Origin: an uncultured Alphaproteobacteria bacterium
Lineage (GTDB): Bacteria > Pseudomonadota > Alphaproteobacteria > Rhizobiales > Afifellaceae
Assembly (NCBI GenBank): GCA_963720705.1
Contig: CAVRGJ010000003.1
Coordinates: 33,488-97,487 of the forward strand
Reading direction: 5' to 3'
DNA: 64,000 nucleotides
The notes under the pieces were generated by a model. It was given only the letters and a program-made list of their open reading frames with translations. It had not been told where the DNA came from and made no database searches. The position numbers and the translations under genes are program-made. Of the stretch, positions 26,227 through 43,378 are shown one piece after another (the first letter of the stretch is position 1; each line of letters opens with the position of its first letter).

Positions 26227-26324
26227 GTCATTCTCGGGCGCAGCGAAGCGAAGACCCGAGAACCTAGACCGATGGACTGCGGCCTGGGTCCTCGGGTCGG
26301 TGCTGTGCACCGCCCGAGGATGAC
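26227..26324. repeat. REP-like inverted-repeat element, family B
   Basis: gtcattctcgggcgcagcgaagcgaagacccgagaacc (26227-26264) and gggtcctcgggtcggtgctgtgcaccgcccgaggatgac (26286-26324) are near reverse complements. Each arm is itself a hairpin (ctcggg...cccgag). Intergenic between cobN and cobO. Confidence 0.6.
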
Positions 26325-26345
26325 AAAGAGCGTGTGTAGTGTGCT

Positions 26346-29300
26346 TCATGCCGCTATCCTCCCCGCCAAGCGTTGCAGCTCTTCGTAAGCGCTGTTCCTC
26401 CGCGGCGCCCAGAGCCCGCGATCGATCGCTTCGCAGAAGCGTGCCGCAATCTCCTTCAGCGCCGGCGCATTGTTCTCCGCGATGAAGCCGCGCACGGCCG
26501 CGTCCTCGATATAGGCGCTGTGAAGCTGCTCGAAATGATGATGCTTCACGGCATTCGTCGTCGCCGCGAAAGCGAAGAGATAGTCGACGGTCGCAGCGAT
26601 CTCGAAGGCGCCCTTGTAGCCGTGGCGCATGACGCCGGCGATCCATTTCGGGTTCGCCGCGCGGCCGCGCACGACGCGCGCGATCTCCTCGTCGAGCGCG
26701 CGGATGACCGGTCGCTCAGGCCGCGAGTGGTCGTTATGGAAGATGCGCGGCGCTTCGCCTTTAAGCGTCTCCACCGACGCCGCGAGCCCGCCCTCGAACT
26801 GGTAATAGTCGTCGGAATCGAGGAGATCGTGCTCGCGGTTGTCCTGGTTCTGCACCACGGCGTCGGTGGCCTTGAGCCGCGTTTCGAGAAGCGCGCGCGC
26901 CCCCTTTCCCTCCGCGCCGCCGCCATACGCGTAGGCCGACCATTCCAGGAAGGCCGCGGCGAGGTCCTTTCGCTCCGACCATATTCCCTCGTCGATCAGC
27001 GTCTGCAGCCCCGCGCCGTAGGCGCCCGGCTTCGAGCCGAAGACGCGGAACGACGCCGCGCTTAGCGCCTCCGCTTCCGACATGCCCGCTCGGCGAAGCG
27101 CTGCCGCGTCTGCGCCGATGCGCGCGGCGATGGGATTGGCGTCTGCCGGTTCGTCGCGTTCCGCGACCGCCTGCACCGCTTCGTGGAAGAGCGCGATCTG
27201 CGTCGGGAACGCATCGCGGAAGAAGCCGGAGATTCTGAGGCGTCACGTCGATGCGCGGGCGCTTCAGCTCCGATAGGGCCACGACCTCGACGCCGGTCAC
27301 GCGCCGCGAGGCGCCTTCCCAAACCGGGCGCGCCCCGATCAGCGCGAGCGCCTGCGCGATGTCGTCGCCGCCGGTGCGCATGTTCGACGTGCCCCAGACC
27401 GTGAGCGCAATCGCCCGCGGCCATTCGCCCTCGTCCTGGAAATAGCGCTCGGCGAGAAGGTCGGCGGAGCGACGCCCGAGATCGAAGGCGGCCGGTGTCG
27501 GCACGGCGCGCACATCGACGGAATAGAAGTTGCGCCCGGTCGGCAGACAGTCGGTCCGCCCGCGCGTCGGCGCACCGGATGGGCCCGGCGCAACGAATTT
27601 TCCGGAGAGCGCGTTGAGCACGGCCGCGATCTCGCGCGTGCCGGAGCCGTCGAGCGCCGGCGCTATGGTGCTCGCAATCTGGTCGAGCACCGCAGTCGCC
27701 GTCTCTAACCTCCCCCTTGAGGGGGAGGTTAGGGTGCCTCGCTCTTCGACCAGCTTCAGCGCCAATCCTTCCAGTCTTTCCACCGTGTCTCCAACAGTGC
27801 GCCAGGGAGCGCCGCGGCCGTCTCTTTCCCCGCTCCCCAGCCGCCCGCCGCAAGGGGGGAGGGAGTCAGGCCGTGGCCCCTCCCACCGTTCGGCGTAGTC
27901 ACAGGCCAGCGGATCGAAGCCCAATTCCAGATCCGCCGCGAGCGCGCGCAGCAGCGACGCGTCCCCGGCGCGTCCATTTCCGCGCGGCACGCGGGACAGC
28001 GCCACGAGCGTCTCCGCGCGCCGCCTACCCGCCGGCCCCTCGCCGAGCACATGCAGCCCGTCGCGGATCTGCAATTCCTTCAAGTCGCAGATATGCGCGT
28101 CGAGCTTCGAGAGCGCGGCGCCATCACTGATCTTGAAGTCGAGCCCGAGGTCTTTGTCGAAGCCATGCCGCTCGGCGAGGTCCGCGATATCGGCGGCGAC
28201 GCGTTTGGCGCGACGCGGATCGCTCGCCTCGGCTGCCGCGTATTCGTCGATCAGCGCTTCGAGCGCCGCCGCCGGGCCGTAGCTTTCGGCGCGAGCCATC
28301 GCCGGCATCAGATGGTCAACAACGACAGCGGCCGACCGTCGTTTCGCCTGCGCACCCTCGCCCGGATCGTTGACGATGAAGGGATAGATCACCGGCAGCG
28401 CGCCAAGTGTGGCCTCCGGGTAGCAGCTCTCCGAAAGCGCCAGCGCCTTACCCGGCAGCCATTCGAGATTGCCATGCTTGCCCATGTGGACCAGCGCGTC
28501 CGCGCCGAACTCTTCTCGGAGCCAAAAGTAGAACGCGAAATACGAATGCGGCGGGACGAGATCGGGATCGTGATAGCTGGTCTTCGGATCGATGTTGTAG
28601 CCGCGCGCCGGCTGGATTCCGATCACAACATTGCCGAAGCGATGCGCGGGAAGGATGAAGGCGTCGCCTTCGACGAACGGATCGGTGGACGGCGCGCTCC
28701 AGCGAGACGTGACGGCGTTACGGACGGTTTTCGGAAGACCGGCGAAGTGACGGTCGTAGTCGTCGAGCAACAGGCTGACGGCATTGCTCCTGCGGTCTGC
28801 GCGGCCTTGTTGGTTCCGCGCATTCGTCGGTCCTTCGAGCAGCAACGCCATCAGCTCCGCGCCCGTCTCCGGCGCGCCGTCGGCGTTGTATCCGGCATCG
28901 CGCATTGCCTTCAGCACGTTCGCGGTCGAGGCCGGCGCGTCGAGGCCGACGCCATTCGCAATCCTCCCGTCCTTGTTCGGATAGTTGGAGAGCACGATGA
29001 CTATGCGCTTCTGAGCGTTCGGTTTGATGTGCAGCTTCGCCCACCGCGCGGCGAGATCGGCTACGAAAGCGATGCGGTCCGGCTTCGGCTTGTAGCGGAC
29101 CGGCCGGCACTCGGTGAGCAGATCGAGCTCGCCCGCCTCCTTGAATGAGACGGCGCGGGAGATGATCCGCCCGTCCACCTCCGGCAGCACGACGTTCATG
29201 GTGAGGTCAGTCGGCGCGAGCCCGCGCGTCGACGCAGCCCAGGCGTCTTCCGAAATTCCGGCGAAGGTGACCTGGATCACGGGCCGCTCGCCGCCGTCGA

Positions 29301-30114
29301 GAACGGTGCCTTCGAATTCAGCGCCCGGCTGCGATAGCGCGAACGACGTGGCGTTCAGGACGAGCGCCGGTTCATGCTCTGCGAATGCCGCGGCGACGAA
29401 AGCCGCATCTTCCTTCGCCTTCAGGCTCGATACGAAGATCGGCAGCGGATTCAGCCCGCGCTCGCGAAGCGCCTTGCGTAGAGCGTCGACGGGCTCCGTC
29501 TGCCCCGCCTGCATCAGCGCGCGATAGAAGACGATCGCGGCCGTTGGAGATTGGTCGTCGGCGCTAAGGCTCTGCCCATAAGTCCCTGCGCTCGGCAGCG
29601 CCCTCGCCTCTTTCGGCTCTCCGCTCTCACCGATCAGCCACGCACAATATCGAAGGGCATTGCCGAGATTCTCCGCGCCGCCCTCGACGAGGTACGCCCA
29701 GAGCCTCTTCGCCTCTGCCTCTTCGATCGTGCCGTGCGCGGCGAGCGATGAGTCCCAGGTCGCGTCGCCCGGGACGACAATGAGCGTCGTACGGCGCGCC
29801 CGACAAATTCGCATAGCTTCGTCGAGGCCGTACCGCCAGTATGACGCACCGCCGAGCATGCGCACCACCACGAGCTTCGCGTGCTGAAGAACAGCTTCGC
29901 CGTAGAGGTCGACCGAATAGGGATGCGACAGCGCCATCCAGTTGGCGAGGCGCACGCTCGGAAAGTGATCGCCAACTGCTCGCCGCGCCGCCGCCAGTCC
30001 GGATATCTCCGTGTCGGCAGCGGAGAGTATCGTGATATCGCCGGGCGACTGCCCGAGATCGACAGGCTCCGCCTCGCCGGTGATCGTCCGCGGCTGGCCC
30101 TTCAGGAGGTGCAT
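26346..30114 (-). pseudogene. cobN: Cobaltochelatase subunit CobN, interrupted by a +1 frame disruption at about 27240
   Basis: The N-terminal ~960 aa in ORF 26761..30114 is CobN-like up to RPRIDVT. The expected continuation LRISGFFRDAFPTQIALFHEAVQAV...HHHFEQL is in the frame of ORF 26346..27176. Total length 3769 nt = 3n+1. The extra base lies in gacgCCtcag. Confidence 0.9.
27706..27731. repeat. Perfect 11-bp-stem palindrome embedded in-frame in cobN
   Basis: taacctccccc-ttga-gggggaggtta, translated within CobN as ...TLTSPSRGRLE.... A second GGGAGGG/CCCTCCC-type palindromic block lies at about 27828-27885. Confidence 0.6.
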
Positions 30115-30129
30115 GGCCGCTCCATCAGC

Positions 30130-31165
30130 TCAGGCGCCAAGCGCCTTCTCGACGGCCGCGCGATCGAGCCCCTTCAGCCCGATCACCACCAGTCCCGGCT
30201 CACGCGATGAATCGACGAACCAGGTTTCGACGCGCGGTCCCACCGCCTGCACCGCGAGCGGCGCGTCGCGACCTTCGATGACGACGACGCCCTTGATGCG
30301 CAAGACGCCGTCGATCGCCATCGCGCTTTTTCACGCACGCCTCGACGCTCGCTCGGTCGGCAGCGACGACGTCGAGCACGAAGCTGTCGAAATCGTCATG
30401 ATCATGCTCTTCGCCCTCGAGCTCATGGTGGCTCTTGCGATTGTGGCTGTCCGTTTCGGCAGCGGCGGACTGCCCGAGCAGCACGTCGACGGGAATACGG
30501 CCGTGCGCTACCGGAATCGTGCGCGCCGCAGGGCGCCGGTCCTCCGCGATCGCAGCCTCCACCTTCGCAAGACCCGCCGCGTCGACGAGATCGGCCTTCG
30601 ATATAACGATGAGATCCGCGCAGCGGAGCTGGTCCTCGAACAGCTCCTCAACCGGGTCGTCATGCTCGAGCGACAGATCCTTGGCGCGCTGCTCGGCTAG
30701 CTTCGCTTCGTCCGACGCGACGCGTCCTTCCGCCACCGCCGCAGCGTCGATCACGGTCACGACGCCGTCGACGGTGACGCGGTTCCTGACGCTCGGCCAG
30801 GCGAAGGCCTTCACCAGCGGCTGCGGCAGCGCCAAGCCTGATGTCTCGATGACGATGTGGTCGGGCGGCGCGTCGCGCCCGAGGATCGCCTCCATCGCCG
30901 GAAGGAAATCGTCGGCGACCGTGCAGCAGATGCAGCCGTTCGCAAGCTCGATGATTTCGTCGGCGCGGCAGGCATCGCTGCCGCAATCGGCGAGAAGCCC
31001 GCCGTCGAAGCCGACATCGCCGAACTCGTTGACGATAAGTGCGATCCGCCGCCCGCCGGGATTTTGCAGGAGGTGTCGGATCAGCGTCGTCTTGCCGGCG
31101 CCGAGGAAGCCGGTGACGATCGTCGCGGGGATGCGGCCCAGGGTCTCCTTGGCAGCGGCGCTCAT
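30130..31165 (-). pseudogene. cobW: Cobalamin biosynthesis GTPase CobW (COG0523), frame disrupted at 30322-30333
   Basis: GFLGAGKTTL P-loop, GCICCT metal motif and His-rich HELEGEEHDHDD are in ORF 30200..31165. The conserved C-terminus MAIDGVLRIKGVVV...VVIG is in ORF 30130..30321, another frame. The junction is confined to gtgAAAAAgcgcg. Confidence 0.85.
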
Positions 31166-31686
31166 ACTTGCGTTCCTTTCAGAACCAGCGGCAGGCCCGC
31201 CGCCATGAACACGACAAGGTCGGCGGCGCCGGCAAAGGCTTGGTTCAGACGCCCCTGCGCATCGCGGAAGCGACGGCCGAGCGCGTTGTCGGGGACGAGC
31301 CCGAGCCCGACCTCGTTTGAGACAAGGACACGAAGGCCCGCAGCTCGCTTCGCGGCATCGACGAGCCGAAGCGTGCGCGCGTCAACATCGGCACCGGCGA
31401 GCACGAGATTGGAGAGCCAAAGCGTCAGACAATCTACGAGCACCGCCCTCCCCTCGCCCGTTTCGCGCTCCAAAGCCTCTTCGAGCCGATCGGGCGCCTC
31501 GATCGTGCGCCACGCCGGATCGCGACGCGCACGATGGCCTTCGATGCGCGCCGCCATCTCTTCGTCGCCTTTCGTGGCGGTCGCGATATAGACGGTTGGC
31601 AATCCGCTCGCCGCCACGATCCGCTCCGCGTAGGTGCTCTTTCCCGAACGCGCACCGCCGAGAACCAGCACGAGGCTGTTCTTCAT
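31162..31686 (-). CDS. cobU: Adenosylcobinamide kinase / adenosylcobinamide-phosphate guanylyltransferase
   Basis: 174 aa. LVLGGARSGKSTYAE P-loop and LVDCLTLWLSN motif. ATGA overlap with the cobW start. Confidence 0.85.
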   Translation of the reverse strand: MKNSLVLVLGGARSGKSTYAERIVAASGLPTVYIATATKGDEEMAARIEGHRARRDPAWRTIEAPDRLEEALERETGEGRAVLVDCLTLWLSNLVLAGADVDARTLRLVDAAKRAAGLRVLVSNEVGLGLVPDNALGRRFRDAQGRLNQAFAGAADLVVFMAAGLPLVLKGTQV

Positions 31687-31692
31687 TCGGCA

Positions 31693-32421
31693 CTATCCGG
31701 AGCGCGAGAACCGCTCGTAGAAGCCCCCAGACGCGTAGCCGAGCACTGCCCAGAAGATCGCGGTCACGGCAAGCGAAGTCGCAGCGAAGTGGCCGGCGAG
31801 TTCGGCGGGCGCGGTCGAGACGTAGGCGGATGGTTGCGGCGCGCCGACGATATGCGGCAGCGCGATCAGCGCGACGCCGCCGATCTGCACCCACAGTGTC
31901 TTCGAGAGGATCAGCCCGGCGATGCCGACCGCAGTCGATGCGACGGCAAAGAACCACCAGGCCTGCCGCACACCGAGAGCCGCCACGCCGCTTCCCGGAA
32001 TTTCCGGCGGCAGGCCGAGCGCCGGAGCAAGCGAAACGGATATGAAACCGGCGATGCCGAAGGCCAATCCGGTGCGCGCGTTGATGCTGACGCCGGCAAG
32101 CGACATGGCGCCAAGCAGTGCCAGGCCGAAGCCAACACCGAGCACCATCGTCGCCAGCGACGTGAAGAAGGTGCGCTCGAGGCCGTCGGCCGGCTGCCAG
32201 CCTCCGTCTTCGTGCGCGACCGCGGAGTCCGGGGCGGCGGATTCCGTCGCCGCGCTTTGATCATGCGTGGTCGTAGCCATGCCGTGGTCATGCGCGGCAC
32301 CGCCTTCGTATTTCTCCGCTTCGATGATGATCGGGGTCGTCGTCACGTACTGGATGACGGCCGTCAGAACGCCTGCCGCGACGCCCGCCGCGGCGGCGCT
32401 CAAGATCAGAGTCTTGAGCAT
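31693..32421 (-). CDS. cbtA: Cobalt transporter subunit CbtA-like membrane protein
   Basis: 242 aa. N-terminal TM, His-rich loop (GGAAHDHGMATTTHD), 4 further TMs, C-terminal PHIVGAPQP. Sits between cbtB and cobU behind a B12 riboswitch. Confidence 0.75.
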   Translation of the reverse strand: MLKTLILSAAAAGVAAGVLTAVIQYVTTTPIIIEAEKYEGGAAHDHGMATTTHDQSAATESAAPDSAVAHEDGGWQPADGLERTFFTSLATMVLGVGFGLALLGAMSLAGVSINARTGLAFGIAGFISVSLAPALGLPPEIPGSGVAALGVRQAWWFFAVASTAVGIAGLILSKTLWVQIGGVALIALPHIVGAPQPSAYVSTAPAELAGHFAATSLAVTAIFWAVLGYASGGFYERFSRSG

Positions 32422-32428
32422 GGCTGCC

Positions 32429-32602
32429 TCAGTGGCAGGGAAGGCCGAAAGCGTGCCTTGTGTCGTGCGTGGCGTTGTGGAGCGCCATCGGATGCGAGAA
32501 GCCGGCGCCGTAGACGACGAGGATTCCGAAGGCGAGCGCGATAACGGCCGGCCACTTGGAGAACTGGCTGGTCGCGACGACGGTGTTGGCTTGCGTATTC
32601 AT
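32429..32602 (-). CDS. cbtB: Cobalt transporter subunit CbtB-like small membrane protein
   Basis: 57 aa from the ATG at 32602. One TM (WPAVIALAFGILVVYGAGF) and a His-rich tail HPMALHNATHDTRHAFGLPCH. The longer ORF-track version runs into the riboswitch. Confidence 0.75.
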   Translation of the reverse strand: MNTQANTVVATSQFSKWPAVIALAFGILVVYGAGFSHPMALHNATHDTRHAFGLPCH

Positions 32603-32639
32603 CAAGAGACCTCCGTGCCGTCCCTCCGACGGCGGGTTC

Positions 32640-32845
32640 GCAGCGTTCCGGCTCAGGCTGGTCTCCTGGCTCGCGGGTCGTCGCCCAACCCCCGCGCCTT
32701 CCCGTTTCCGGTGGCAGATGCGGATGGGCTCGCCGCTCACAGTTGCGGGGGCAGCTGCGGTATTGGAAGCCCGGCTTGGGTCCTTCCTCACCGCATTCCC
32801 ATTTCATCCCCAAGCGCGTTTTCGCGCCGGCGGGGAACCAGAGCG
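32640..32845 (-). promoter_or_regulatory. Cobalamin (B12) riboswitch upstream of cbtB-cbtA-cobU-cobW-cobN
   Basis: The minus-strand RNA contains ggttcc...aatgggaatgcggtgaggaa...ccgcagctgcccccgcaactgtgagcgg... and the B12 box gagccaggagaccagcc, matching the conserved core of the cobalamin riboswitch. Confidence 0.8.
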
Positions 32846-32919
32846 AATCCATTATGGAGAAAGGCGGCGCGCGCGCAAGCGCCTTCGCCGAACGTTCCGC
32901 GTTCGCGGGTTCGACGCCG

Positions 32920-33237
32920 TCAGGCTTTGGGAGCCCGCGCCGCTCCGTTGCCGTTGCCATTGCCGTTAGCGCGCACACCGAGTCTTGCCGCCGTCGTGGG
33001 ATAGCGGCGGCTGAACCAGACGGCGAAGCGCCGGCGCCAGCGGCGGACGCGCGGGATATCGACGGAGAGGATCAGGAGGCCGGCCGGGATCATCCAGAAG
33101 CCGAGCACCGGGAGAAAGCCGAACGTGCCGAACACCACCAGGACGGAGCCGATCGATATCCGAAGCAGGCGCGAGCGCGGCAACGGCATGCGGTAGCTGC
33201 CGAAACGGACAGAGCCGCCGGAATTGGTGTCTGCCAT
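32920..33237 (-). CDS. Small two-TM membrane protein (PGPGW-like), C-terminal (GN)n tail
   Basis: 105 aa. FGFLPVLGFWMIPAGLLILS hydrophobic hairpin. The tail RANGNGNGNGA is encoded by a hexanucleotide repeat. Confidence 0.5.
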   Translation of the reverse strand: MADTNSGGSVRFGSYRMPLPRSRLLRISIGSVLVVFGTFGFLPVLGFWMIPAGLLILSVDIPRVRRWRRRFAVWFSRRYPTTAARLGVRANGNGNGNGAARAPKA

Positions 33238-33449
33238 GTCGCGTCGCTTCTTTCCGTCCCGGCCAACCGCTTTGTGGCGGCCGCGCCCTGCCCCGGCCTG
33301 GGCCGGTTCCTAAGGCCTGAGTATCACGTTCTAAAGATGGCGCCGCCCGCGGCGTACGGCGAGCCCGGTCCCGGGATCACGAGAGTACCAAACGTATGGC
33401 CCGACCCGCCTTGCGTTGGCAAGCCGGTCTCGCCTATATGCGGCCCTAA

Positions 33450-33525
33450 TCCCCGGTAGCTCAGTCGGTAGAGCAAGCGGCTGTTAACCGCTGGGTCGCT
33501 GGTTCGAGTCCGGCCCGGGGAGCCA
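33450..33525 (+). tRNA. tRNA-Asn (GTT)
   Basis: tccccggtagctcagtcggtagagcaagcggctGTTaaccgctgggtcgctggttcgagtccggcccggggagcca. 7-bp acceptor stem, canonical D and T arms, encoded CCA. Confidence 0.9.
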
Positions 33526-33903: not shown

Positions 33904-35313
33904 ATGTATCGCTGGAGCTGGCGCACAGCTCTCTATGCCATTGCTGCGGCTGCCATTTTCTTGGCGGTCGGCGCCCGCGCGCAAGAGCTAAAAGATCAGG
34001 GTAGCCCGTCTTCGACCTCGGACTCTGCGGCGCCGCCGACCGGTGCCGAGCTCGAACAGCTCCAGGCGCGACGGAAGGCCCTCTTCCAGCAGATGCTGGC
34101 TGACCCGACCAACCTCGACGTCGCCTTCGAATATGCGGGCCTTTCCGCCCGCGTCGGCGATGTAGAGGCGTCAATCGCGACCCTGGAGCGGATGCTGATC
34201 TTCGCGCCCGGTCTGCCCCGCTTACAGCTCGAGCTTGGCGTGCTCTATTTCCGGCTCGGCGCCTACGAGACGGCACGATCGTATTTCGAGCAGGCGCTCA
34301 GCGCACCGGACGTGCCTGCGGTCGTGAAGACGCGCGTCGACCCTTATCTCAACGCCATCAACGAGCAGACGAAAGGCTATACGTTCCACGGCGCGATCCT
34401 GACCGGCGTCCGTTATCAGACGAATGCCAACGCGGGGCCGACCGGCACGGTCCGGCTCAACGTGGGAGGCGCCGAACTCCCCTTCACCCTCGATGAAACC
34501 GCCACCGGCACGCCGGACTACAACACCTTCATGAGCGGGAGCTTCAATCTCTCGGTCGACCTGCAGAACCAGGGTGATCGGTTCGACGTGAACCTGGTGA
34601 CCTACGGGGCCTTCTATAGGAAGCGCGACGACATCAACACGATGCTGGCCGAGATAAAGTTCGGACCGGTCTACGATCTTACGCGCTTCGGCATGCCGAA
34701 GAGCGCGTTTAGGATTTACGGCATCGCGAGCGGCCTCGTGCTTGGGCAGGACCCGTATCTCGGGGCCGCCGGCGCCGGCGCGAGATTCATGACGATGCTC
34801 ATGCCGCACACGCGGGTTGTCCTCCAGGAAGAAGCGCGGCGCGAGGAGTATCTGAACTCCGATCTCCGCCCGACTTCGTCGCTGCGCTCCGGGCATCGTT
34901 TGTCGGGCGACGGTCGGATCGAGCAGCAATTGGGCGATCGGTTTTCGGTGTTCGCCGGAGTCGAGGGCGAGCGGCGGATGACCGAGCGCGACTATCTCGA
35001 CGTGTGGGAATGGGGCGGCTCGGCCGGCTGGGTGATGGCGCTCGATCCCGCCAACTCAAGCAACGCGGAGAGATGGACGCTGGGCGTAGCCGGAGGCTAT
35101 TTGCGCCGCAACTACGACGCGCCCGACACCACGATCAACCCGAACAATGCGGAATGGGACAAGGAAAAGTACATCGTCGGGACCCTCAACGTCCCGATCA
35201 ACGATGGCTGGGGGCTGCAGGCCCAAAGCGGCTATCGCAGCGTCGATTCCAACTACGACACGCGCGTCTTCAAGAACATCCACGGCTCGCTCGCCCTGTC
35301 GAAGAGGTTTTAG
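33904..35313 (+). CDS. Outer-membrane protein with N-terminal TPR region and C-terminal beta-barrel, Slam/DUF560-like (surface lipoprotein assembly modulator family candidate)
   Basis: ~469 aa. Signal peptide (ALYAIAAAAIFLAVGARA). TPR-like helices (DPTNLDVAFEYAGLSARVGDVEASIATLERMLIFAPGLPRLQLELGVLYFRLGAYETARSYFEQAL). Then ~330 aa of alternating-hydrophobic strands ending in ...SLALSKRF, the terminal aromatic typical of OMP barrels. The family call is an inference from architecture and size. Confidence 0.6.
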   Translation: MYRWSWRTALYAIAAAAIFLAVGARAQELKDQGSPSSTSDSAAPPTGAELEQLQARRKALFQQMLADPTNLDVAFEYAGLSARVGDVEASIATLERMLIFAPGLPRLQLELGVLYFRLGAYETARSYFEQALSAPDVPAVVKTRVDPYLNAINEQTKGYTFHGAILTGVRYQTNANAGPTGTVRLNVGGAELPFTLDETATGTPDYNTFMSGSFNLSVDLQNQGDRFDVNLVTYGAFYRKRDDINTMLAEIKFGPVYDLTRFGMPKSAFRIYGIASGLVLGQDPYLGAAGAGARFMTMLMPHTRVVLQEEARREEYLNSDLRPTSSLRSGHRLSGDGRIEQQLGDRFSVFAGVEGERRMTERDYLDVWEWGGSAGWVMALDPANSSNAERWTLGVAGGYLRRNYDAPDTTINPNNAEWDKEKYIVGTLNVPINDGWGLQAQSGYRSVDSNYDTRVFKNIHGSLALSKRF

Positions 35314-36087
35314 GTGAACACGGCGCGGCATCGAGGCCTTTGGGTCGCAGTTGTTTGCCTTGCAACGGTCTGCCTTGCGACATCGTGGATCTTGGCGTCG
35401 GCCGCGAGCGCGTTCGACGGGCCGGCGACGGAACTTGCGCAGGCGGCAGGTCAAGAACCGAAGACCATCACCTTCCCCGAAAACGAAGTGCACGGGAAGA
35501 CGGTCGCAACCGACGCGACCGGCCTCGTGCAGCTCCTCTTTCCCGACGGCACGGCCTTGACGCTCGGCGCGAATTCCGAGGTCACCGTGGACTCCTTTGT
35601 CTTTGACCCCGCGAAGGCCAGCGCCACGATCGCCGCGACGTTGAATCGCGGCGCATTCCGTTTCATCGGCGGGCGCACGTCGAAGACGCGCGACGGCGTG
35701 GCGCTGACGACGCCCTTCGGAATTGTCGGCGTCGAATCAGCGGGCGTGGAACTCTGGCTCGGAGCGGAGAACGCACCGGCGCATTTCGATATGCTCTATG
35801 GCGGCTCGATGACGCTGAAGCGAGGCTCCGCCACGCTCGCGCGCGTCCACTCGAACGGCTACTCGATCGTGCCGACGCCCGACGGGGCGAGCGCTACAGT
35901 GCGAAAGACGCCCGGCGAATGGCATAGCGAGATGCGAGAGCGGCTGTCCCACGAACGCGCGGGCGCAGCCGGAACGGCTGCCCTGCGGTCGGAGCCCGAC
36001 GCGCCGATTTCGACCGCCTGGTTGCACAAGAATTGGGCGCTTTGCGGCCTCGACGGGGCGCCCTCAACTGCTATCTTAACGAGTTAG
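35314..36087 (+). CDS. Secreted FecR-domain protein (short paralog of the N-terminus of the downstream giant protein)
   Basis: 257 aa. GTG start immediately after the upstream stop (tagGTG). Signal peptide. The core LVQLLFPDGTALTLGANSEVTVDSFVFDP...AATLNRGAFRFIGGRTSK matches the FecR fold pattern and aligns with 36114+ (LVNILLVDGTSFTVGANSDLTIDSFVYDP...ATLAKGALRFIGGRTSK). Confidence 0.75.
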   Translation: MNTARHRGLWVAVVCLATVCLATSWILASAASAFDGPATELAQAAGQEPKTITFPENEVHGKTVATDATGLVQLLFPDGTALTLGANSEVTVDSFVFDPAKASATIAATLNRGAFRFIGGRTSKTRDGVALTTPFGIVGVESAGVELWLGAENAPAHFDMLYGGSMTLKRGSATLARVHSNGYSIVPTPDGASATVRKTPGEWHSEMRERLSHERAGAAGTAALRSEPDAPISTAWLHKNWALCGLDGAPSTAILTS

Positions 36088-36113
36088 ACACCAAGGGCCG
36101 CGGGGGAAATGCA

Positions 36114-39100
36114 GTGAACCAACGCATTGCACTTCTTTGTACGGCGTGCCTGCTCGCGCTGCCCGTCACGGGTGTGCGCGCCGAGGTACAAGTGGGCGTC
36201 GCGGCTGCCGTGAACCAAGCGGCTGAAGGCGAAGCCCCCGGCGCAGGGAAGCGCACCCTCACGCTTGGCGACACAGTCATTCACGACGAGCACATCGCGA
36301 CCGGGCCGGATGGCCTGGTCAATATTCTCCTCGTCGACGGCACGTCGTTCACCGTCGGCGCCAATTCCGACCTGACCATCGACAGCTTCGTCTACGACCC
36401 GAACGCCGGAACCGCGAAGGTCGTTGCGACGTTGGCGAAGGGTGCCCTCAGGTTCATCGGCGGACGCACCTCGAAGACTGGCGGCGCCACCATCAACACG
36501 CCCGTCGGGACGGTCGGTATCCGCGGCGGCGTGGGTGACTTCAGCATCGGCGAGGGCGATGGTAGCGGAGGCGTTCCGCAAAACCTCGTCAACTGCGTCT
36601 TCGGCAGCTGCAGCGTCACCGATTCTAACGGCACCGTCACGAACTTCGACCAGGGCCAGTCTGTGTATCCGGACGGCAGCGGCGGCTACACGGTCGTCCC
36701 GACAACTCCGGCAATGGCCGCCGCCGGCACGAGCCAAGTCGGCAGCGCCGCCGGGAAGACCGGCGGAGCCAGCCAGCAGAAGACGCAGCAGATCAACAGC
36801 ACGGTCAACAAAGGCACCGGCGTTACGAACTCGGGCAGCCCGCCGCCCAACAATCCGCCGACCGATCTCACGACCGGCTCACCCGGCACAACCAACAACG
36901 TCGTGCAGGACGCCAATCCGACAATAATCATCCCGAAGCCGATCGTGCCTAATCCCCTCTCCCTTCGGGTTCTGACCTCGCCCGAGGTCTACGAGACGAG
37001 CTGGACGTCGATTCCTTCCGATGAAGAGGACGACCGCCGCCCCGCCGAACTCGGGCTGGTCGGTGGCGACGCCGCGGGCCGCGACCAGAATGTCACCCTG
37101 ACATTCGCGGCCCAGCCAAACCATACTGGTTTGTTTGCGGGGTCCGGTGACCTCGCGGAGGCCCCGGTCACCGGCGCCGTCGTGCTGCCCGCTCATCTGG
37201 CGTCAGGGTTCCATTCGTTCTCGACCAGCGCGGACGCCGTGGCGCCGTTCTCGCCCTTAGGAGCACCGTCAGGCGCCTACTACTTGAACACGGACGGACA
37301 GCACGACATCAACTTTGCCTTCTTCGAGCTCTTCTACAACGACGGCGAGGGCGCCGCGCCCTTCTACGCGATCGGCGGCAAACCGACCGATTTTCAGATG
37401 GTTTTTACCGGCGAAAGCGTTCGCCGCTACACGTTCACAGAGGATCCCATCCAGGGCGTCCCGGTGCCGTTCTTCCGGTCTGGCCTGATCGACGATTTCT
37501 CCGGCGCCGCGATCAGCGACATCTATGTCGTTAAATCTCCCGATCTCACTAGCGAGGATCCGCAGCACGTTCGGCTGCTGCAGGCGTGGCTGCAGATCAG
37601 CGGCACCGGCACGGACCAGCAGAGCGCGATCGGCGTCACCGCAGGCGATTTCGAGTCAGGAGACGACGGCGGCTACCAGTTAGGCACCGGCCGGCGCGGC
37701 AGCTACCGCTCCGACGCAACCGACACAGCGACGCTCTTCTATGGGCCCCTGAAATCGCTCGAAGGTCCCGACGGCGGCACCTCGGTTTTCGGCGATAACG
37801 GCGAGAACTTCGTGCTGACCTCCGACGTCACCGGGAACGACCCCTTCGGCGACAATTCCATCAACGACGGCGCGAATTTCAGCACCGTCCACGTCGCCAA
37901 TCTGGTCAACGAGACAGCACAGAGCCCTACGCAATCGGATCACACACTCTTCGGATTCACGTCCGGCATGGTGGAAGAGACGCGGGCGGAGCACAACGGC
38001 GTGACCGTCAGCTCGATGTTCAGCGGGCTTCCGGACCTCAACGACGAAGGCGGTCCGGTGGCAGGGTTCCGTATCCAGTTTCACGCCGACGGCAACAATC
38101 TCGGCGGCGACCTCACGGTCGAGGACCAGTTCGACACGTCAGCGCAGCAATCGCTGCACCTCTCCTTCGGCGACGGCTACGATCACCAGCCGGGCGATCC
38201 GGGCGGCTCGTCCGTCTACCTCGACGACACCCTCTTCGCCGCGGATACGCAGGGCCCCGACGAGGACGGCCTTTTCCCAGCGCTCTTATGCGACGAAGGA
38301 CAACGACAGCACGCTCGTCTATTTGGACCGGCGAGTTTCCCGTCACCTTCATCGTGTCGAGCGGCGCCGTGGACCTCGGCCCGAATCCTGCCTTCATGGG
38401 CGGCACGGAAATTTGCACGTGCAGCTTCCTCGAATGGGGCTGGTGGGGCGCCCAGCCGCGGCTCGCACTCGAAGTCAGCCCGGACCAGGAATTCCTAACC
38501 CAGTCGATCCACCTCGGCACATGGGTGGCGGGCGACATCGTCGACAGCTACATTTCGACCTCCCCCTCACTGGCGACGCGACATATACCGGCTTTGCCAT
38601 CGGCACCGTTCTCACCGTCGACCCAAACGACGGCTGGATGGGACCCGCGTGACCCGATCCTCTCGCAATATATTGCCGGCGGCGGCGTCAGCCTCACATG
38701 GCACTTCGGCGAGCGCACCGGCGAGATCGCCTTTGACTTCGACGGCAAGACCTTCGGCGGCATCGTCAGCGATCCGGGTTCCTCCGGCGCGCTTTTCGCG
38801 GGCGACCTCTCCGGCGATCAGCTCTCTGGCAGCGTCAACGGCGCTTTCGTCAGCAGCTCGACGACGACCGATGCCGGCTTCATCGGCGATTTCGGCATCT
38901 ATGGCGAGAACTACTCGGCTACCGGCATCATTGTCGGTGAGAAGAACCTGTCGGCCGACCCGACCGAACTCAACGCAATCTCTTTCCCCATGCGCGTACT
39001 GACGTCGGGCGGCGATTACACGCCCTATGGGAGTAGTCAAACCACGGTCGCCAATTCGACCAGCGCCGGGCTGGTGGGCAACGGTTCGCTTGGCGGCGAG

Positions 39101-41904
39101 GACGGCAAGGACGACACCGTCCAGGCGACTCTCGGCACCCTTTCGCTTGATTCCCCTGGCGTGATCTCGGCGGACGCCACCTTCAACTTTGGCGGGACGG
39201 AATTCACGCTTCCGTTCGAACTGACCAACACTTCTTCCTCGCAGGCGATCAACGAGACCTTCGTCGGAGAAGAGACGACGACGACCGTAACCGGCACGGC
39301 TTATTTCGGTCCGGGCGAGTTTGCGGCGTATCTGACTAGCTACGACGATGGGGACGGCGCGAAATTGGCCTACGCCGTGAGCGGTATCCCCACGACGATT
39401 CTCCCGCAGGGCGGAACCGGTGTTTTCGAAGGCGGCGGCGTGCGCGCTTACGCGCTGAGCGAAGATCCGGTCCAGCAAATTCCTGTGCCGTTCATGCGGG
39501 ATATCTCGGCCTTTAGTTACGACGACGCTGGTGAGGGAGGCCCTGCGAACTATGTCTCGACGCCGCTCTACGTCGTGAACGAGCATGCGGGTGGCGAGAC
39601 CAACTTCGCTCCGCATGTCCTGCAGACATGGCTTACGATCGAGGGAAGCGGCGCAGAACAAGTGAGCGGCATCGGCGTCGAAGTCGCGACGATTTACGAC
39701 GATCCGGGCGACGGCATCGGCTTCGGAATAAACGCCGGGCGCCGCGGCAGTTTCCGTGCCAATGCCGAATACGGTTCGTCGACGCTGGGTGGCGCCTATT
39801 CCACGCTCGGCGGCCCCAACGACGGCGCCAACCAGTTCTTCGGGCCGAACGCCGAGAACTTCCTGGTCGGCACCGGCGGCTTCTCGAATGGAGACACCGC
39901 GCCAAACGTGCCGGGGGTCATTGGCGACTACTCGTTGGACTCCAATGCGGACGCGGGCGTTGAGTACGGAACGGTGCACGTCGCCACGCTGGAAGACACT
40001 CCGACGGGTGTCGGCGAGGACCGTACCGAACGGTTGGGGCTCACGGGCTTTACCGCGGGTCTTGTGGACGTTGCCTACCAGGGCGGCTGCTCCGCCCCCA
40101 ACGAGGGTTGCAGTTCCTGGGATCTCACGCAGGCGCTCGCGAAGGGTGGGCCGCAGGACCATCAGGGCATCGCCTTGAATCTCGACCCGAGCAACGACCG
40201 CTTGGGCGGCACTCTGGTCATCAACGGCGTGACGCCGGAGGGAAGCGGCTCGCTGACGCTCGAGTTCGGCAAGAGCCCTGGCCAGGATGGACGGCGAAGG
40301 CAAGTCCACCTTCGTCGACGACAACATCTACGCAGCGCGTGAATCCGCGTTCCCGGCCCACACCACGGCGGTTGTCGACGGGAATACGATTTATCAGCGT
40401 GTCGACGACCAGGCCAATACCTACGTCGTCTCCTCGGGCGCCGTGGCGCTTTACGATCCCGCCTTCATGGGCGGCGCGGCGTTCTGCCAGCAGTGCGACT
40501 TCATCGAGTGGGGCTGGTGGGGCACCACCGTCAGGTTTGCTGATCCCACGAACCCGAACGACAGCATCTTCATGGCGACGCATCTCGGCACGTGGGTCGC
40601 GGGCGACATCACGCCCGGGTACAACGTGCTGCCCGAGCTCGGCGAGGCTACCTATTCCGGCCATGCAGTCGGCACCGTCGTCGCCAGCATCGGCGAAGGC
40701 ACCACGGTGCAGTACGTCGCCGGCGGCGATTTCGACCTCACCTGGGATTTCGGCAGCCGCACCGGCCTGTTGGCCATCAACAACTTCGACGGTCGCGATT
40801 TCGGCGGCGCGGTAGCCGACAACGGCGCCGACTTCGCGGGCTTTAGCGGTGACCTCTTCGGTTCGGGGCTGACCGGCTCTGCCGAAGGCGCTTTCGTCAA
40901 CAACGGCGACACCCTCGGCGCCGGCGTGATCGGCAATTTCGGCGTCGCCAGCGAGTTCTTACTCGGCGACCGGCATCTTCCTCGGCGCGAACGTGCCCCT
41001 GCCCGCCTCGGTCGGCCAGAGCCTCACGTCACTGACCGGCTTTGCCGCCGGCTTCGTCGATGCAGAAGTGGACGGCTCGCCGAGCCCGGTCTCACCGATC
41101 GCGATGCAGGGCAGCATCGATCTAAACTTCACGGCCGGGGCGCCTGGCACCGTGAGCGGCTCGGTTTTGGTCGCCAATGGGGATACCGCGCTCTCCGCAG
41201 ACTTCGGCGGCTCTGGTTCGTCTGTCTATGTTGACGACGATATCTTCGCGGCCGTGGCGGGCGACGAATCGGATGCAGCGGTGACGCTTGAGGAGACTGT
41301 GCACCAGGAGTCGGGAAAGCCCTCGACCTACGTTGTCTCGGCGAACGCGGTCTCACACCCGAACGTTTCCGCTCCCGACGCCAACTGCACGGACTGCAGT
41401 TTCATGAAGTGGGGCTGGTGGGGTACGGAGGTCAAAGGAAACACCGGCGGTTCCGAACCGCAAGACGTCCGCGCGTCCGCCCACCTCGGCACGTGGGTCG
41501 CCGGCAATATGCCCGACCCGTCCGACCTGCCGACGACGGGCAGCGCAGAATACGACGGCGGCGCGATCGGCACGGTGAACAATGCGGGCGCCCAATACGC
41601 GGCCTCCGGCGATATGCACATGGACTGGAACTTCGGCACCCAGACGGGAGACTGGAACGTATCGAACTTCGACGGGAAGACCTTCGGCGCGAGCGACGTC
41701 ACCAGTCTCGCCGAGACGTCGACGTTCTCTGGAGCGGTCGACACGGGCGATGCCACGGGAACCATGAGCGGCGCATTCGCGTCGAACGGCGCCGACGCGA
41801 GCGCGGCGCCTGCCGGTGTCATGGGCAGCTTCGGCGTGACCGACGGTGGGGACTGGTCTGCGACCGGCACCTTTATGGGCGAAGTTGCTTCTCCCGAAAA
41901 CTGA
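36114..41904 (+). pseudogene. Giant (~1,900 aa if repaired) secreted FecR-domain protein with three modules ending in TbpB/fHbp/hemophilin-like small beta-barrels; reading frame broken at >=6 positions
   Basis: The coherent protein sequence passes through ORFs 36033..38498, 38323..38652, 38288..40342, 40287..41234 and 40993..41904. GTG start at 36114 after ggggga, signal peptide ALLCTACLLALPVTGVRA. Each module ends with C-x2-C-x-F-x2-WGWWG, HLGTWVAG, A-x-Y-x-G-x-A-x-G-T-V, W-x-FG-x-x-TG, FDG-x-x-FG, and G-x-x-G-x-F...G-x-FG...ATG-x-F. Frame switches at about 38286, 38329, 38557, 38650, 40289 and 40959. Confidence 0.6.
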
Positions 41905-42052: not shown

Positions 42053-43378
42053 GTGCGGCGTCTGTTCGATTTTTGGCGCGACCAACGCGGCAACACGGCA
42101 CTGATCTTCGGCCTGGCCATCGTGCCGCTTCTGGCGCTCGGTGGCGGAGCGGTCGACTTCGCGCAGCGTGAAAGAGTTCACGGCGAGATGCAAAGCGCGT
42201 CCGACACGGCCGCGCTTGCCGCCGCCCGGATCGTCCAAGACGGCCTCATGAAGCGCGAGAGCGATTGGAGCGCGCTGCAGGCCGAGGCGGTGTCGACCGC
42301 GACCAAGTTCATCACGGCGGCGTTGACTGATCTCACCGGCGACGCGCCGAGCATCGACATTCAGGTGACGCAAACCGCCGTCACCATCACCACGCACTAC
42401 GACATGAAGACCGCGTTCCTCGGCGTCATCGGCCTGAACACGCTCCCGGCGTCGACCTTTGCCGAGGTGGACATGCCCGACCCGATCCTGGTGGAGATCA
42501 CGCTCGTCCTCGACTACTCGCTGTCGATGAACCAGAACAGCAAATACACGCGCATGACGACCGCGGCGCGCGACTTCATTGCCAAGGTCGCGGCTAACCG
42601 TGCCGACCGCACGAAGATCGGCATCATCCCCTTCTCCGAGTTCGTCTACGCCGATGTGGCCGACACCGACGTGCGTGCGCCCGATACCAGCGGCGGACAT
42701 CCCTGGGACGGCGGCTCGACGTGGGACGGAAGCTCAAGCTGGAGCGGCGGCTCGTCGACGTCGACCGGCACCGCAACAGCGAAGTGCCTCCTGAATCGTG
42801 ACTACCCGTACTCGGTGACCAACGAGACGCCGGTCGGCGCGACCGCGAGCAAATGGGAGCAAGCGGACCCCACCAGCTCTCGCTGCAAAGCCTATGAGGA
42901 CGGCGGGCTCAAGGCGCGCGACCTGACCGACGACTTCACCGGGTTGAGCAATGCGCTCTCCGGCATGCACCCGGTCGGCTGGACCAACATCTCGCTTGCC
43001 ACCGAGATGGGCTACCACATGCTTTCGCCGAACGAGCCGTTCGAAACCGCGCGCGACTTCTCCGATCCCTACGTGCGCAAGATACTGGTCTTGCTGACCG
43101 ACGGCGTACAGACGATCGAGGCGATGGGTCCGACCGGCGAGGTTTCGATCGACGGCGCCAACCACACCACTGCGGAGCTTTGCGAGAACGTCAAGGCGGA
43201 CGACATCTCCCTCTACACGATCGCCTATGACGTCGATGACACGTCGGTTTACGATCTGCTTTCCGCCTGCGCCTCCGGACCGGGCGCCTATTTCGAGGTG
43301 CACGATTCGTCCGGCATCGGCGCGGTCTTCGACGCGATCTATGACCAGATCGCGGAGTCGGCGTGGTTGAGCCGCTGA
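42053..43378 (+). CDS. TadE/TadG-like N-terminal domain protein with von Willebrand factor A domain
   Basis: 441 aa. N-terminal RDQRGNTALIFGLAIVPLLALGGGAVDF (TadE/TadG-like pseudopilin-type segment). MIDAS-like VLDYSLSM and later LLTDGV, typical of vWA. Confidence 0.7.
   Translation: MRRLFDFWRDQRGNTALIFGLAIVPLLALGGGAVDFAQRERVHGEMQSASDTAALAAARIVQDGLMKRESDWSALQAEAVSTATKFITAALTDLTGDAPSIDIQVTQTAVTITTHYDMKTAFLGVIGLNTLPASTFAEVDMPDPILVEITLVLDYSLSMNQNSKYTRMTTAARDFIAKVAANRADRTKIGIIPFSEFVYADVADTDVRAPDTSGGHPWDGGSTWDGSSSWSGGSSTSTGTATAKCLLNRDYPYSVTNETPVGATASKWEQADPTSSRCKAYEDGGLKARDLTDDFTGLSNALSGMHPVGWTNISLATEMGYHMLSPNEPFETARDFSDPYVRKILVLLTDGVQTIEAMGPTGEVSIDGANHTTAELCENVKADDISLYTIAYDVDDTSVYDLLSACASGPGAYFEVHDSSGIGAVFDAIYDQIAESAWLSR

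Follow-up and report, generated by a model that had tools for sequence, protein, structure and literature searches.

Organization of the locus

Three co-oriented, tightly packed genes lie on the + strand 3′ of a tRNA-Asn gene in the window, the whole 64-kb stretch of DNA that was analysed, and encode an outer membrane protein (OMP), a small FecR-domain protein and a giant FecR-headed protein, just as the initial annotation of this DNA had placed them. The genes and their neighbours are as follows:

33450..33525, + strand: tRNA-Asn (GTT), called by ARAGORN; marks the 5′ limit of the locus and is given for context
33904..35313, + strand: gene 1, OMP of 469 aa, ORF from the ATG at 33904 and its translation; divergent member of the DUF560/Slam (type 11 secretion) family
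35314..36087, + strand: gene 2, secreted FecR-domain protein of 257 aa without a barrel, from its ORF; Pfam FecR 33.4 bits (cut-off 24)
36114..41904, + strand: gene 3, FecR-headed multi-module cargo, GTG start at 36114, from ORF fragments; about 5.8 kb, 1928 aa once repaired
42053..43378, + strand: TadE/G-like and VWA protein of 441 aa, 3′ of the giant gene; Pfam Tad 42.5 bits, VWA 30.7 bits

No TonB-dependent receptor or ECF sigma factor gene was called within 10 kb on either side of the locus, in agreement with the initial annotation, no iron or haem genes were found near it, and no CHASE2 protein or cyclase is encoded within the window. The Tad/VWA gene is kept only in the closest relatives (homologs in L001, L005, L007 and L008 only) and its membership of the system is uncertain. 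The hosts of the related systems are soil and water Hyphomicrobiales.

The outer membrane protein

The product of gene 1 is identical to database protein P0001. It had been described as an OMP of about 469 aa with a signal peptide, a TPR region and a C-terminal barrel, and the ORF, a TPR_9 match (35.7 bits) and the AlphaFold2 model (pLDDT 86) all agree with this description; the N-terminus is signal-peptide-like, helices at residues 47–156 (about 110 aa of TPR) are followed by about 14 long strands, and the protein ends in KRF. Neither a plug domain nor a TonB box was found in it.

The proposed membership of the Slam family is supported, although the window protein itself scores only 14 bits against PF04575 (SlipAM/DUF560), below the cut-off of 22. 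SlipAM is matched by 14 of 33 OMP relatives (best E 1.4e-6), and some family members are named DUF560 or surface lipoprotein assembly modifier in their source records, while other barrel families gave no consistent match among the 33 members, the BcsC and PgaA models giving none at all. Moreover, when the OMP family profile was compared by hhalign with a bona fide PF04575 member, which itself passes that model at 28.4 bits, the two aligned at 97.6% probability (E 4e-12) over 217 columns reaching into the barrel. The fold matches in the PDB were generic (BcsC, CymA, OmpG and FadL), with no Slam structure among the matches in either structure search. Judged by sequence, the OMP is a divergent relative of DUF560/Slam.

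The small FecR protein and the giant cargo

The GTG start of gene 2 directly abuts the OMP stop codon (AAG AGG TTT TAG GTG, with the junction at TAG/GTG), as had been noticed before. The expected paralogy between gene 2 and the N-terminus of the giant gene was recovered as well, at 35% identity between their FecR domains, against about 50% between the FecR domain of the giant gene and those of distant cargos. The small gene is confined to the clade of the window (L001–L011 only) and is, by these comparisons, seen as a divergent, clade-specific extra FecR copy. The giant gene is laid out as follows:

36183..36743, + strand: FecR-like N-terminal cargo domain, HMM match (Pfam FecR 32 bits); proposed periplasmic plug or partner domain
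36744..36953, + strand: low-complexity linker (Pro, Thr, Asn, Gly) from the FecR head to module 1, repaired residues ~200–280
36954..37928, + strand: module 1 "np" domain, about 325 aa, fold not assigned; self-alignment and HMM
37923..38956, + strand: module 1 handle and 8-strand barrel, HMM matches; contains frameshifts 38281 and 38328 and the scrambled stretch 38551–38640
38981..40015, + strand: module 2 "np" domain, HMM match
40016..40961, + strand: module 2 handle and barrel, HMM matches, NCBIfam slam_lipo 20 bits; contains frameshifts 40285 and ~40957
41005..41901, + strand: terminal half module, handle and C-terminal 8-strand barrel, presumed targeting domain; NCBIfam slam_lipo 36.9 bits, E 4e-9; AlphaFold2 and Foldseek

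The three modules with Slam-cargo barrels that had been proposed are present as three handle-barrel units, yet the modules are unequal, two being full (about 665 aa each) and one a half module. The module 1 "np" domain has no match in Pfam. The signal peptide reads as type I and no lipobox is seen, as was first reported. Over 60 cargos the linker is composed of 59% PTSGNQA residues, with 11% Pro, and the modules between the FecR head and the barrel show little conservation and grow or shrink from strain to strain.

The C-terminal module was predicted with confidence (AlphaFold2, pLDDT 85, pTM 0.85) and has the TbpB-type fold that had been suggested for it: in Foldseek against the PDB, ranks 1–25 are TbpB, followed by fHbp, LbpB, HpuA, NHBA (TM 0.69) and hemophilin, so that the best matches are almost all Slam cargo. 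The barrel profile also matches fHbp (E 4.5e-6) and NHBA by sequence, and slam_lipo and FHBP_C match 27 and 19 of 48 cargo members, respectively, although the matches of the barrel domain to TbpB_B_D, FHBP_C and slam_lipo are all below the curated cut-offs. In 59 loci the barrel lies at most 12 residues from the C-terminus.

Frameshifts in the giant gene

The frame of about 5.8 kb first described does extend from 36114 to 41904, but it is not open in this assembly, being split over four ORFs (36033–38498, 38288–40342, 40287–41234 and 40993–41904) by at least four frame-disrupting indels. These were located by tblastn with the intact L003 homolog and by mapping against L001, a contig of 98.9% identity. 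Relative to L001 the window carries 1-base insertions at 38281, 38328 and 40285, while a compensating pair of indels at ~38551–38640 scrambles the A-x-Y-x-G motif of barrel 1, where L001 reads ...ATYTGFAIGTV...

It might be argued that the organism carries the giant gene as a pseudogene in decay, leaving only the OMP and the small FecR gene functional. The number of indels is in line with this, the frameshift at ~40957 is common to both near-identical assemblies and could be real, and giant genes are fragmented in several related long-read MAGs too. At most sites, however, the indels differ between the two assemblies, L001 being free of those at 38281, 38328 and 40285 and having its own at 36569 and 37655. 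Removal of four single bases restores a protein of 1928 aa with no in-frame stop codon, and L003/L006 have an intact homolog whose frame runs on for more than 3000 codons. Furthermore, cobN is split and cobW shortened in the window, both being intact in L001. Since the nearly identical contig has different indels and cobN is also broken here, the frameshifts are probably long-read assembly errors, and we hold decay of the gene to be very unlikely.

Linkage in related genomes

In all 80 genome loci, the OMP stop codon is followed within 300 nt by the start of a FecR-domain ORF on the same strand, an arrangement far beyond chance, and the same gene order is found in the RefSeq annotation of Shinella and Paracoccus plasmids. 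The FecR gene after the OMP ends in a barrel in 62 of 66 cases. Four related loci (L021, L024, L028 and L053) pair the same OMP with a short barrel-less FecR protein; given these and gene 2 here, the OMP may do more than move barrels, or something other than that. Thus the checks on OMP family, cargo fold and genomic linkage did not speak against the Slam-like reading of the locus, which is supported.

Directly 3′ of the cargo, 36 of 55 related loci carry a gene with CHASE2 and adenylate cyclase domains. This FecR-CHASE2 pairing recurs in unrelated lineages and such gene pairs have been published (PMC5498481, PMC9239204, PMC5192318). On S. meliloti pSymB a FecR-TPR fusion protein is encoded directly upstream of a CHASE2 cyclase, and tblastn with the Rhizobium (L047) cargo found no homolog on that replicon. 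The clade of the window is a derived form, with the extra barrel-less FecR gene, three barrel units and no cyclase in 64 kb.

Discussion

The locus shares with type 11 (Slam, DUF560, PF04575) systems one OMP that joins periplasmic TPR repeats to a barrel of about 14 strands, next to its cargo gene, and the cargo resembles TbpB, LbpB, fHbp, HpuA, NHBA and hemophilin/HphA in being Sec-exported and in ending in a handle and 8-strand barrel that match solved structures. In contrast to these, neither the OMP nor the barrel reaches the curated family thresholds, a FecR domain opens the cargo, which lacks a lipobox, and in place of a nearby TonB-dependent receptor, iron or haem gene there is, in most relatives, a CHASE2 adenylate cyclase. 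Slam examples come from Neisseria, Haemophilus, Acinetobacter and Xenorhabdus, whereas the hosts here are not animal-associated. Multi-barrel cargo and an alphaproteobacterial setting, both initially counted as parts of an undescribed combination, had already been published by Grossman et al. 2025 (PMC12282271), who predicted multi-TbpBBD "Sphingomonas" and "Psychrobacter" surface-protein cargo types. As in our cargo, these have several handle-barrel pairs per protein and proline/threonine-rich disordered N-terminal stretches; unlike it, they are mostly lipoproteins from cluster 1 OMP neighbourhoods with no FecR head described, and that study names FecR solely among co-occurring regulators, next to sigma-70 domains.

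A new point is the resemblance, at the sequence level, of the FecR head to the retention module of LapA/MpIBP, the type 1 secreted RTX adhesins. The cargo FecR profile matches PDB 5IX9 (MpIBP retention module; E 1.4e-6), below the family cut-off and over only about 70 residues, and NCBIfam retention_LapA (NF033682) has sub-threshold matches to 32 of 38 members. Both have an N-terminal stretch of about 70 residues of similar pattern followed by a flexible linker, and here as there the protein would leave with its C-terminus first and, once plugged, be too big to be lost by diffusion. They differ in route, which here would be Sec and an outer membrane translocon, and retention is here only proposed; genes for LapG, LapD or type 1 secretion do not adjoin the locus.

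We consider it on balance probable that the locus is a divergent variant of type 11 secretion that displays a lipid-free cargo plugged by its FecR head, with coupling to a cyclase in the relatives. The OMP would be the outer membrane translocon for the cognate cargo encoded directly downstream, which would be exported by Sec through its type I signal peptide. By homology to known Slam-cargo pairs, the TPR-barrel OMP is expected to recognise the C-terminal TbpB-like handle-barrel unit and to move the barrel-containing modules to the cell surface. In place of the lipid anchor of known cargo, every family member starts with a well-conserved FecR-type domain and a Pro/Gly/Thr-rich linker. If the head folds in the periplasm it could not pass the pore, and the linker would span it as the retention module of LapA/MpIBP does in type 1 adhesins, the protein being held in the translocon. 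The lipid-free cargo is thus probably displayed at the surface and held by a periplasmic FecR plug.

Alternatively, a soluble protein could be secreted here by the ordinary type 11 route, with the whole cargo, FecR head and all, released to the medium like a hemophore, the FecR head acting as a ligand-binding effector domain and the cyclase of the relatives being a regulator or a coincidence. There are well-established examples of soluble Slam cargo without a lipid (hemophilin/HphA; PMC8560813, PMC12282271), the signal peptide without a lipobox suits such a protein, and the fold and linkage evidence applies to it equally. Yet no other part of the cargo is as conserved as the FecR domain, with a mean column identity of 47% against 25% for the barrel module (and 52% for the OMP), a pattern more in keeping with an internal partner that is conserved than with an external ligand that varies. 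This, the likeness of the head to a periplasmic retention module, the barrel-less FecR proteins that adjoin the same OMP and the repeated pairing with CHASE2 lead us to regard soluble release as unlikely.

The CHASE2 genes invite a different comparison. [quoted passage not shown] The S. meliloti FecR gene adjoins the cob operon, as in the window, and the S. meliloti proteins match through the FecR domain only (31% identity). None of these systems is tied in those papers to DUF560/Slam or TbpB-like barrels, and the window differs from them in having no cyclase. It could be supposed that the locus encodes a FecA/FecR-like trans-envelope signalling chain rather than secretion, in which the OMP is a receptor, the FecR proteins are periplasmic transducers that bind its TPR domain and relay the signal to a CHASE2 sensor, and the barrels stay in the periplasm. 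The frequency of the cyclase, the barrel-less FecR proteins of the four loci and of gene 2, the pSymB fusion and similar pairings in S. meliloti and Campylobacterota clusters (PMC7529298, PMC9239204) all accord with such a chain. With FecA-FecR-FecI ferric citrate signalling the locus shares the Pfam FecR domain (PF04773), matched above threshold. Unlike there, however, the FecR proteins have no transmembrane or cytoplasmic anti-sigma part, the OMP shows no plug domain or TonB box, and no ECF sigma gene or TonB-dependent transducer lies nearby. In addition, nearly all cargos (62 of 66) have at their end the kind of barrel by which Slam substrates are defined, homology links the OMP to DUF560 translocons, and the intervening modules are variable in sequence and number, as expected of surface-exposed parts. 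We find a signalling chain without secretion quite unlikely.

Under type 11 display with a FecR plug, in the relatives with a cyclase (about two thirds of the loci) the CHASE2 sensor domain would probably find its partner in the periplasmic FecR head, and this contact may couple ligand binding by the surface lobes to cAMP synthesis. Because a CHASE2 adenylate cyclase lies right after the cargo in most relatives, which is the second new point, the likely role of the family shifts towards signalling; it hints at communication from the surface to the cytoplasm, a role not yet described for a type 11 secretion system.

Organization of the locus

The locus is composed of three co-oriented genes situated behind a tRNA-Asn gene at 33904-41904, an arrangement that the initial annotation had proposed and that the coordinates confirm. 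Gene 1 encodes the outer membrane protein (OMP), gene 2 a small barrel-less FecR protein and gene 3 a giant FecR-headed cargo protein. The GTG start of gene 2 abuts the TAG stop of gene 1, exactly as the tagGTG junction had been read before.

Features of the locus (window coordinates)
33450-33525: tRNA-Asn, upstream of the three co-oriented genes
33904-35313: gene 1, OMP of 469 aa, identical to the database protein P0001 and ending in ...KRF
35314-36087: gene 2, FecR protein of 257 aa with a signal peptide (Pfam FecR, 33.4 bits)
36114 (GTG) to 41904: gene 3, FecR-headed cargo, 26 nt after gene 2
42053-43378: TadE/G-like and VWA protein, directly downstream of the giant gene

A cobalamin operon lies upstream of the tRNA and the OMP gene on the opposite strand, while the genes 3′ of gene 3 encode the TadE/G-VWA protein, a HAD hydrolase and a copper ATPase. 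The TadE/G-VWA gene is conserved after the giant cargo gene only in the closest relatives (loci L001, L005, L007 and L008). For the type 11 OMPs of marine cluster 3, co-occurrence with DUF1194/vWA proteins has been reported (PMC12282271); in view of this, the TadE/G-VWA neighbour of the cargo may be no coincidence. The claim that the locus has neither a TonB-dependent receptor nor an ECF sigma factor nearby was also upheld, as no such gene was called within 10 kb. Promoter and terminator scans of the locus stayed at chance level, and no further OMP, FecR or barrel copies were found elsewhere within the 64-kb window.

Family of the outer membrane protein

The OMP had been assigned to the Slam (DUF560) family from its architecture and size. 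On its own, the window protein reaches only 14.0 bits (E 0.038) on PF04575 (SlipAM), below the gathering cut-off of 22, yet 14 of 33 aligned close relatives match SlipAM at E<=0.01, with a best value of 1.4e-6, and no other barrel family is matched consistently among these 33. More than 1000 homologs were retrieved, several of them named in their source records as DUF560 or surface lipoprotein assembly modifier, and an exhaustive profile search delimits a subfamily of ~800 clusters (50% identity level, E under 1e-30). When the OMP family profile was compared by hhalign with an Alloyangia “surface lipoprotein assembly modifier” (97.6%, E 4.2e-12, 217 columns), the alignment spanned the last TPR to the first half of the barrel and left the second half unaligned. 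This Alloyangia plasmid reference protein itself passes PF04575 (28.4 bits) and adjoins a TbpB-like gene.

The architecture is consistent with this assignment, with a signal-peptide-like N-terminus, a TPR match (TPR_9, 35.7 bits) and an AlphaFold2 model (pLDDT 86) showing TPR helices at residues 47-156 and ~14 long strands at 159-468. Foldseek returned generic barrels at low TM-scores (BcsC, CymA, OmpG, FadL), the best target-normalised scores being those of the 14-strand barrels OmpG, CymA and FadL, and the OMP profile, when run against solved structures, retrieved designed TPR proteins only. Because no Slam structure was among the matches of either search, the fold comparison cannot decide the family membership of the OMP. 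Taking the relatives, the profile alignment and the architecture together, we conclude that the OMP belongs to the DUF560 superfamily as a divergent member falling below the curated threshold.

Other assignments were tried and rejected. A BcsC/PgaA polysaccharide porin, which the initial annotation had named among the families to test against, has a larger barrel; none of the 33 relatives match those Pfam models and no polysaccharide genes adjoin the locus. Two-partner secretion or an autotransporter was discarded likewise, with no POTRA domain present and Autotransporter matches in only 2 of the 33 relatives. The longer OMP relatives (P0207, P0229, P0234, P0249, P0258 and P0269) lack a FecR domain and hence are not FecR-OMP fusions.

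Reading frame of the giant gene

Gene 3 is broken into four overlapping ORFs in three frames, which raises the possibility that it is a pseudogene. Using tblastn with an intact homolog, the shifts were located at ~38264-38339, 40282-40293 and 40949-41002. Over 21 kb (23900-45300), the window is 98.9% identical to L001 (ENA contig_31103), the public contig bearing P0001, with 201 mismatches and 27 gap openings that are scattered and also fall within the cob genes. Compared with L001, the window carries additional bases at 38281, 38328 and 40285 and a compensating deletion/insertion pair at ~38551-38640 that garbles the A-T-Y-x-G-x-A-x-G motif of the first barrel. L001 has indels of its own at 36569 and 37655, and its cobN is intact with 1256 aa, while that of the window falls into two pieces (26346-27176 and 26761-30114). 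Removal of four bases restores a gene 3 product of 1928 aa with no internal stop. Since two near-identical assemblies differ in indels, conserved cobalamin genes included, the comparison points to long-read assembly error rather than to gene decay. The shift at ~40957 is common to both assemblies and could be real.

Any reading frame elsewhere in the window likewise calls for caution. Giant cargo genes are broken up in most of the related “MFD” MAGs, which we take as long-read assemblies (L005, L007, L008, L009 and L011), and intact at >3000 codons in L003/L006; the number of cargo modules differs widely among close relatives.

Architecture and fold of the cargo

Features of the repaired cargo protein
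residues 1-23: signal peptide, no lipobox
residues ~45-190: FecR domain
residues ~200-280: Pro/Thr/Asn/Gly-rich linker
residues 281-945: module 1
residues 955-1625: module 2
residues 1626-1928: terminal half module
residues 132-143 of the last module (~41386-41421): C-x-x-C motif, with equivalent sites in modules 1 and 2

A full module consists of a ~330-aa domain without family match, followed by a ~110-aa handle and a ~200-aa barrel. Three modules had been described for this protein; three handle-barrel units are indeed present, but as two full modules and one half rather than three equal ones.

The last 303 residues were modelled by AlphaFold2 on an alignment of 17 rows, this small number being due to the word-indexed protein search with the barrel module, which yielded only 7 and then 14 proteins. 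The model of this terminal handle-barrel unit has a pLDDT of 85 and a pTM of 0.85. TbpB accounts for all the top 25 PDB matches in Foldseek, followed within the top 50 by fHbp, LbpB, HpuA, NHBA (target TM 0.69, rmsd 3.6 A), HphA and hemophilin, so that nearly all the matches are known Slam cargo. A profile of 48 module sequences searched against the PDB retrieved fHbp (E 4.5e-6) and NHBA (E 5e-4). The TbpB-type barrel fold suspected earlier for the cargo modules is thus supported, with the last of them modelled. Assignment to a cargo class by curated sequence models is not supported: the window cargo scores 36.9 bits on slam_lipo (NF041636, cut-off 80) and 17.5 bits on FHBP_C (PF08794, cut-off 28.1), and the search with TbpB_B_D (PF01298), which the initial annotation had proposed, gave no match in the window cargo pieces. 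Across the cargo family, matches below threshold were observed in 27/48 members for slam_lipo, 19/48 for FHBP_C and 4/48 for TbpB_B_D.

Right before every barrel, a C-x-x-C-x-F-x-x-W-G-x-W motif is invariant in all 48 aligned family members. It could be a disulfide or metal site, and we found no mention of it in reports on known Slam cargo.

The cargo has no obvious lipobox, as noticed before; reading the N-terminus MNQRIALLCTACLLALPVTGVRA|EVQ, no L-[AS]-[GA]-C motif is found. This absence does not exclude membership among type 11 cargo, because soluble cargo subclasses are known, and a soluble cargo that is fully released is one rival explanation for such a protein. In the reading that we favour, the anchoring of the cargo must differ from that of known cargo, as there is no lipid.

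Linkage in other genomes

Scanning species-representative genomes gave 80 loci in Hyphomicrobiales and relatives, spanning Rhizobium, Mesorhizobium, Aureimonas, Jiella, Devosia, Stappia, Roseibium, Hoeflea and Pleomorphomonas. In every one (80/80), a FecR ORF starts within 300 nt past the OMP stop on the same strand, and it ends in a barrel in 62 of the 66 loci with enough downstream sequence, in line with the genomic linkage on which the earlier proposal depended. In 59 loci, no more than 12 residues separate the barrel from the cargo C-terminus. The usual cargo is a single gene of 820-1000 aa composed of FecR, linker, middle domain, handle and barrel, and the extra small FecR gene together with multi-module giants (up to >3800 aa) is restricted to the clade of the window. 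Six Stappia loci (L045, L050, L054, L055, L061 and L075) have a second FecR ORF, located ~4.2 kb ahead of the OMP in the same orientation, and are without a downstream cyclase.

A CHASE2 cyclase as frequent neighbour

When the ORFs of all 80 loci were clustered, a third conserved gene emerged. It directly follows the cargo and encodes, in one example, a CHASE2 domain (189 bits) and a class III cyclase (Guanylate_cyc, 83 bits). This CHASE2 cyclase is located right behind the cargo in 36 of the 55 loci whose downstream sequence extends for at least 6 kb, and the plasmids Shinella p1 and Paracoccus pAMI5 have the same three-gene order as annotated in RefSeq. None was detected in the 64-kb window by tblastn.

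[quoted passage not shown] None of these three papers makes a tie to DUF560 or TbpB-like barrels. Our literature search found no paper that joins DUF560 with FecR, or CHASE2 with type 11/Slam terms; Grossman et al. 2025 (PMC12282271) mention FecR solely among the co-occurring regulators listed in a supplement.

On S. meliloti pSymB, the gene directly upstream of one CHASE2 cyclase (L089, 4340-8825) encodes a secreted FecR domain (60 bits) fused to a long TPR region and not a barrel cargo, a fusion suggesting that the two domains cooperate in the periplasm. A homologous relation between the cargo and NsrA of S. meliloti was considered and rejected, as tblastn of a Rhizobium cargo against the plasmids gave no pSymB match; the likeness to NsrA would be a functional analogy only.

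The window locus adjoins a cobO-cobN-cobW-cobU cluster (24000-33400), and in another S. meliloti sequence (L087, CP090106.1) a 295-aa FecR gene is situated between a CHASE2 cyclase and cobU-cobW-cobN-cobO. Judging by its adjacency to the CHASE2 cyclase, presumably cyaD1, and by the published description, this gene is probably SMc02177, and the arrangement may be what is left of an ancestral locus shared with the window. In Shinella p1 (L085) and an Ensifer plasmid (L088), the cassette, or a reduced version with TPR, FecR and CHASE2 cyclase, adjoins NHLP-type bacteriocin export genes (C39 peptidase ABC transporters), with Nif11-like precursor peptides and cyclic-nucleotide-binding proteins also among the neighbours.

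The FecR head and a possible mode of action

Both FecR proteins score above the gathering cut-off of 24 on PF04773 (33.4 bits for gene 2 and 32.0 bits for gene 3), and the FecR domains called initially are thereby established. Only a signal peptide precedes FecR in both, with no transmembrane or cytoplasmic anti-sigma part, and since no sigma-70 or TonB-receptor gene lies within 10 kb they fall outside the FecIRA anti-sigma type. A FecA-like signalling chain operating without export is a rival explanation. It is favoured by the pSymB FecR-TPR fusion upstream of a CHASE2 cyclase and by barrel-less FecR variants beside the OMP; in L021, L024, L028 and L053, the OMP is followed by a short barrel-less FecR (~270-290 aa) and then by the CHASE2 cyclase. 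A role of the OMP purely as barrel translocon does not explain such loci.

Within the cargo, conservation is highest in the FecR head, where the mean column identity is 47% compared to 25% for the barrel module and 52% for the OMP. The profile of the head matches the N-terminal retention module of the MpIBP adhesin (PDB 5IX9) over 70 residues at E 1.4e-6. On NCBIfam retention_LapA (NF033682), the score is 27.8 bits vs a cut-off of 50, and 32 of 38 family members match this model below threshold. The head is followed by a low complexity linker (59% PTSGNQA). The LapA module was reported to plug the outer-membrane pore with a flexible stretch threading through it (bioRxiv 10.1101/198937), and the N-terminal retention module and threaded stretch of LapA/MpIBP may have their counterparts in the FecR head and linker of the cargo. 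However, LapA and MpIBP belong to a type 1 secretion context, whereas no type 1 secretion genes adjoin this locus. The resemblance is one of possible working and not of membership in the LapA type.

The OMP and the cargo are homologous and alike in fold to a known translocon-cargo pair, and their genes are strictly linked. By analogy with that pair, Sec would take the cargo across the inner membrane, and the OMP would move its barrel units to the surface. The conservation of the FecR head, its resemblance to 5IX9 and retention_LapA and the low-complexity linker are why we regard the head, by analogy, as a putative plug that would stay in the periplasm; where the CHASE2 cyclase is present, the head might act as its partner. 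Perhaps, and we put this forward as a tentative reading that is rather doubtful, the cargo is an outside-in sensor anchored by its own secretion system, with TbpB-like lobes on the surface, a linker spanning the pore and a periplasmic FecR plug serving as direct CHASE2 input, such that ligand binding or pulling at the surface would lead to cAMP (elsewhere kinase) signalling.

Significance for type 11 secretion

Work on type 11 secretion has centred almost entirely on bacteria associated with animals, in which the cargo is a lipoprotein or hemophore linked to metal uptake. The system itself, its alphaproteobacterial members and cargo with several barrels have already been published (PMC8406197, PMC12282271), and these elements of the combination that had been called undescribed are not new; nine of the ten type 11 sequence clusters are without known cargo (PMC8406197). 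What is new is the class of FecR-headed, lipid-free cargo, the strict way in which it is paired with a large, divergent subfamily of OMPs, the likeness of the FecR head to a retention module and the frequent CHASE2 cyclase neighbour. Cargo can now be predicted for a large OMP subfamily of soil and water alphaproteobacteria, and it differs in kind, being lipid-free, FecR-headed and often multi-module. The LapA likeness of the head suggests how a lipid-free cargo could be held at the surface.

To our knowledge, no ligands are known for the CHASE2 sensor domain, and Sinorhizobium limits root infection by a cAMP pathway. The CHASE2 neighbour links type 11 secretion to both. If only the ordinary reading is true, the locus adds one more cargo type to a known system. 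If the outside-in sensor reading were true, type 11 secretion would have a signalling role, and the long-missing input of CHASE2 would be supplied, including that of the rhizobial CyaD/CyaK infection-control pathway.
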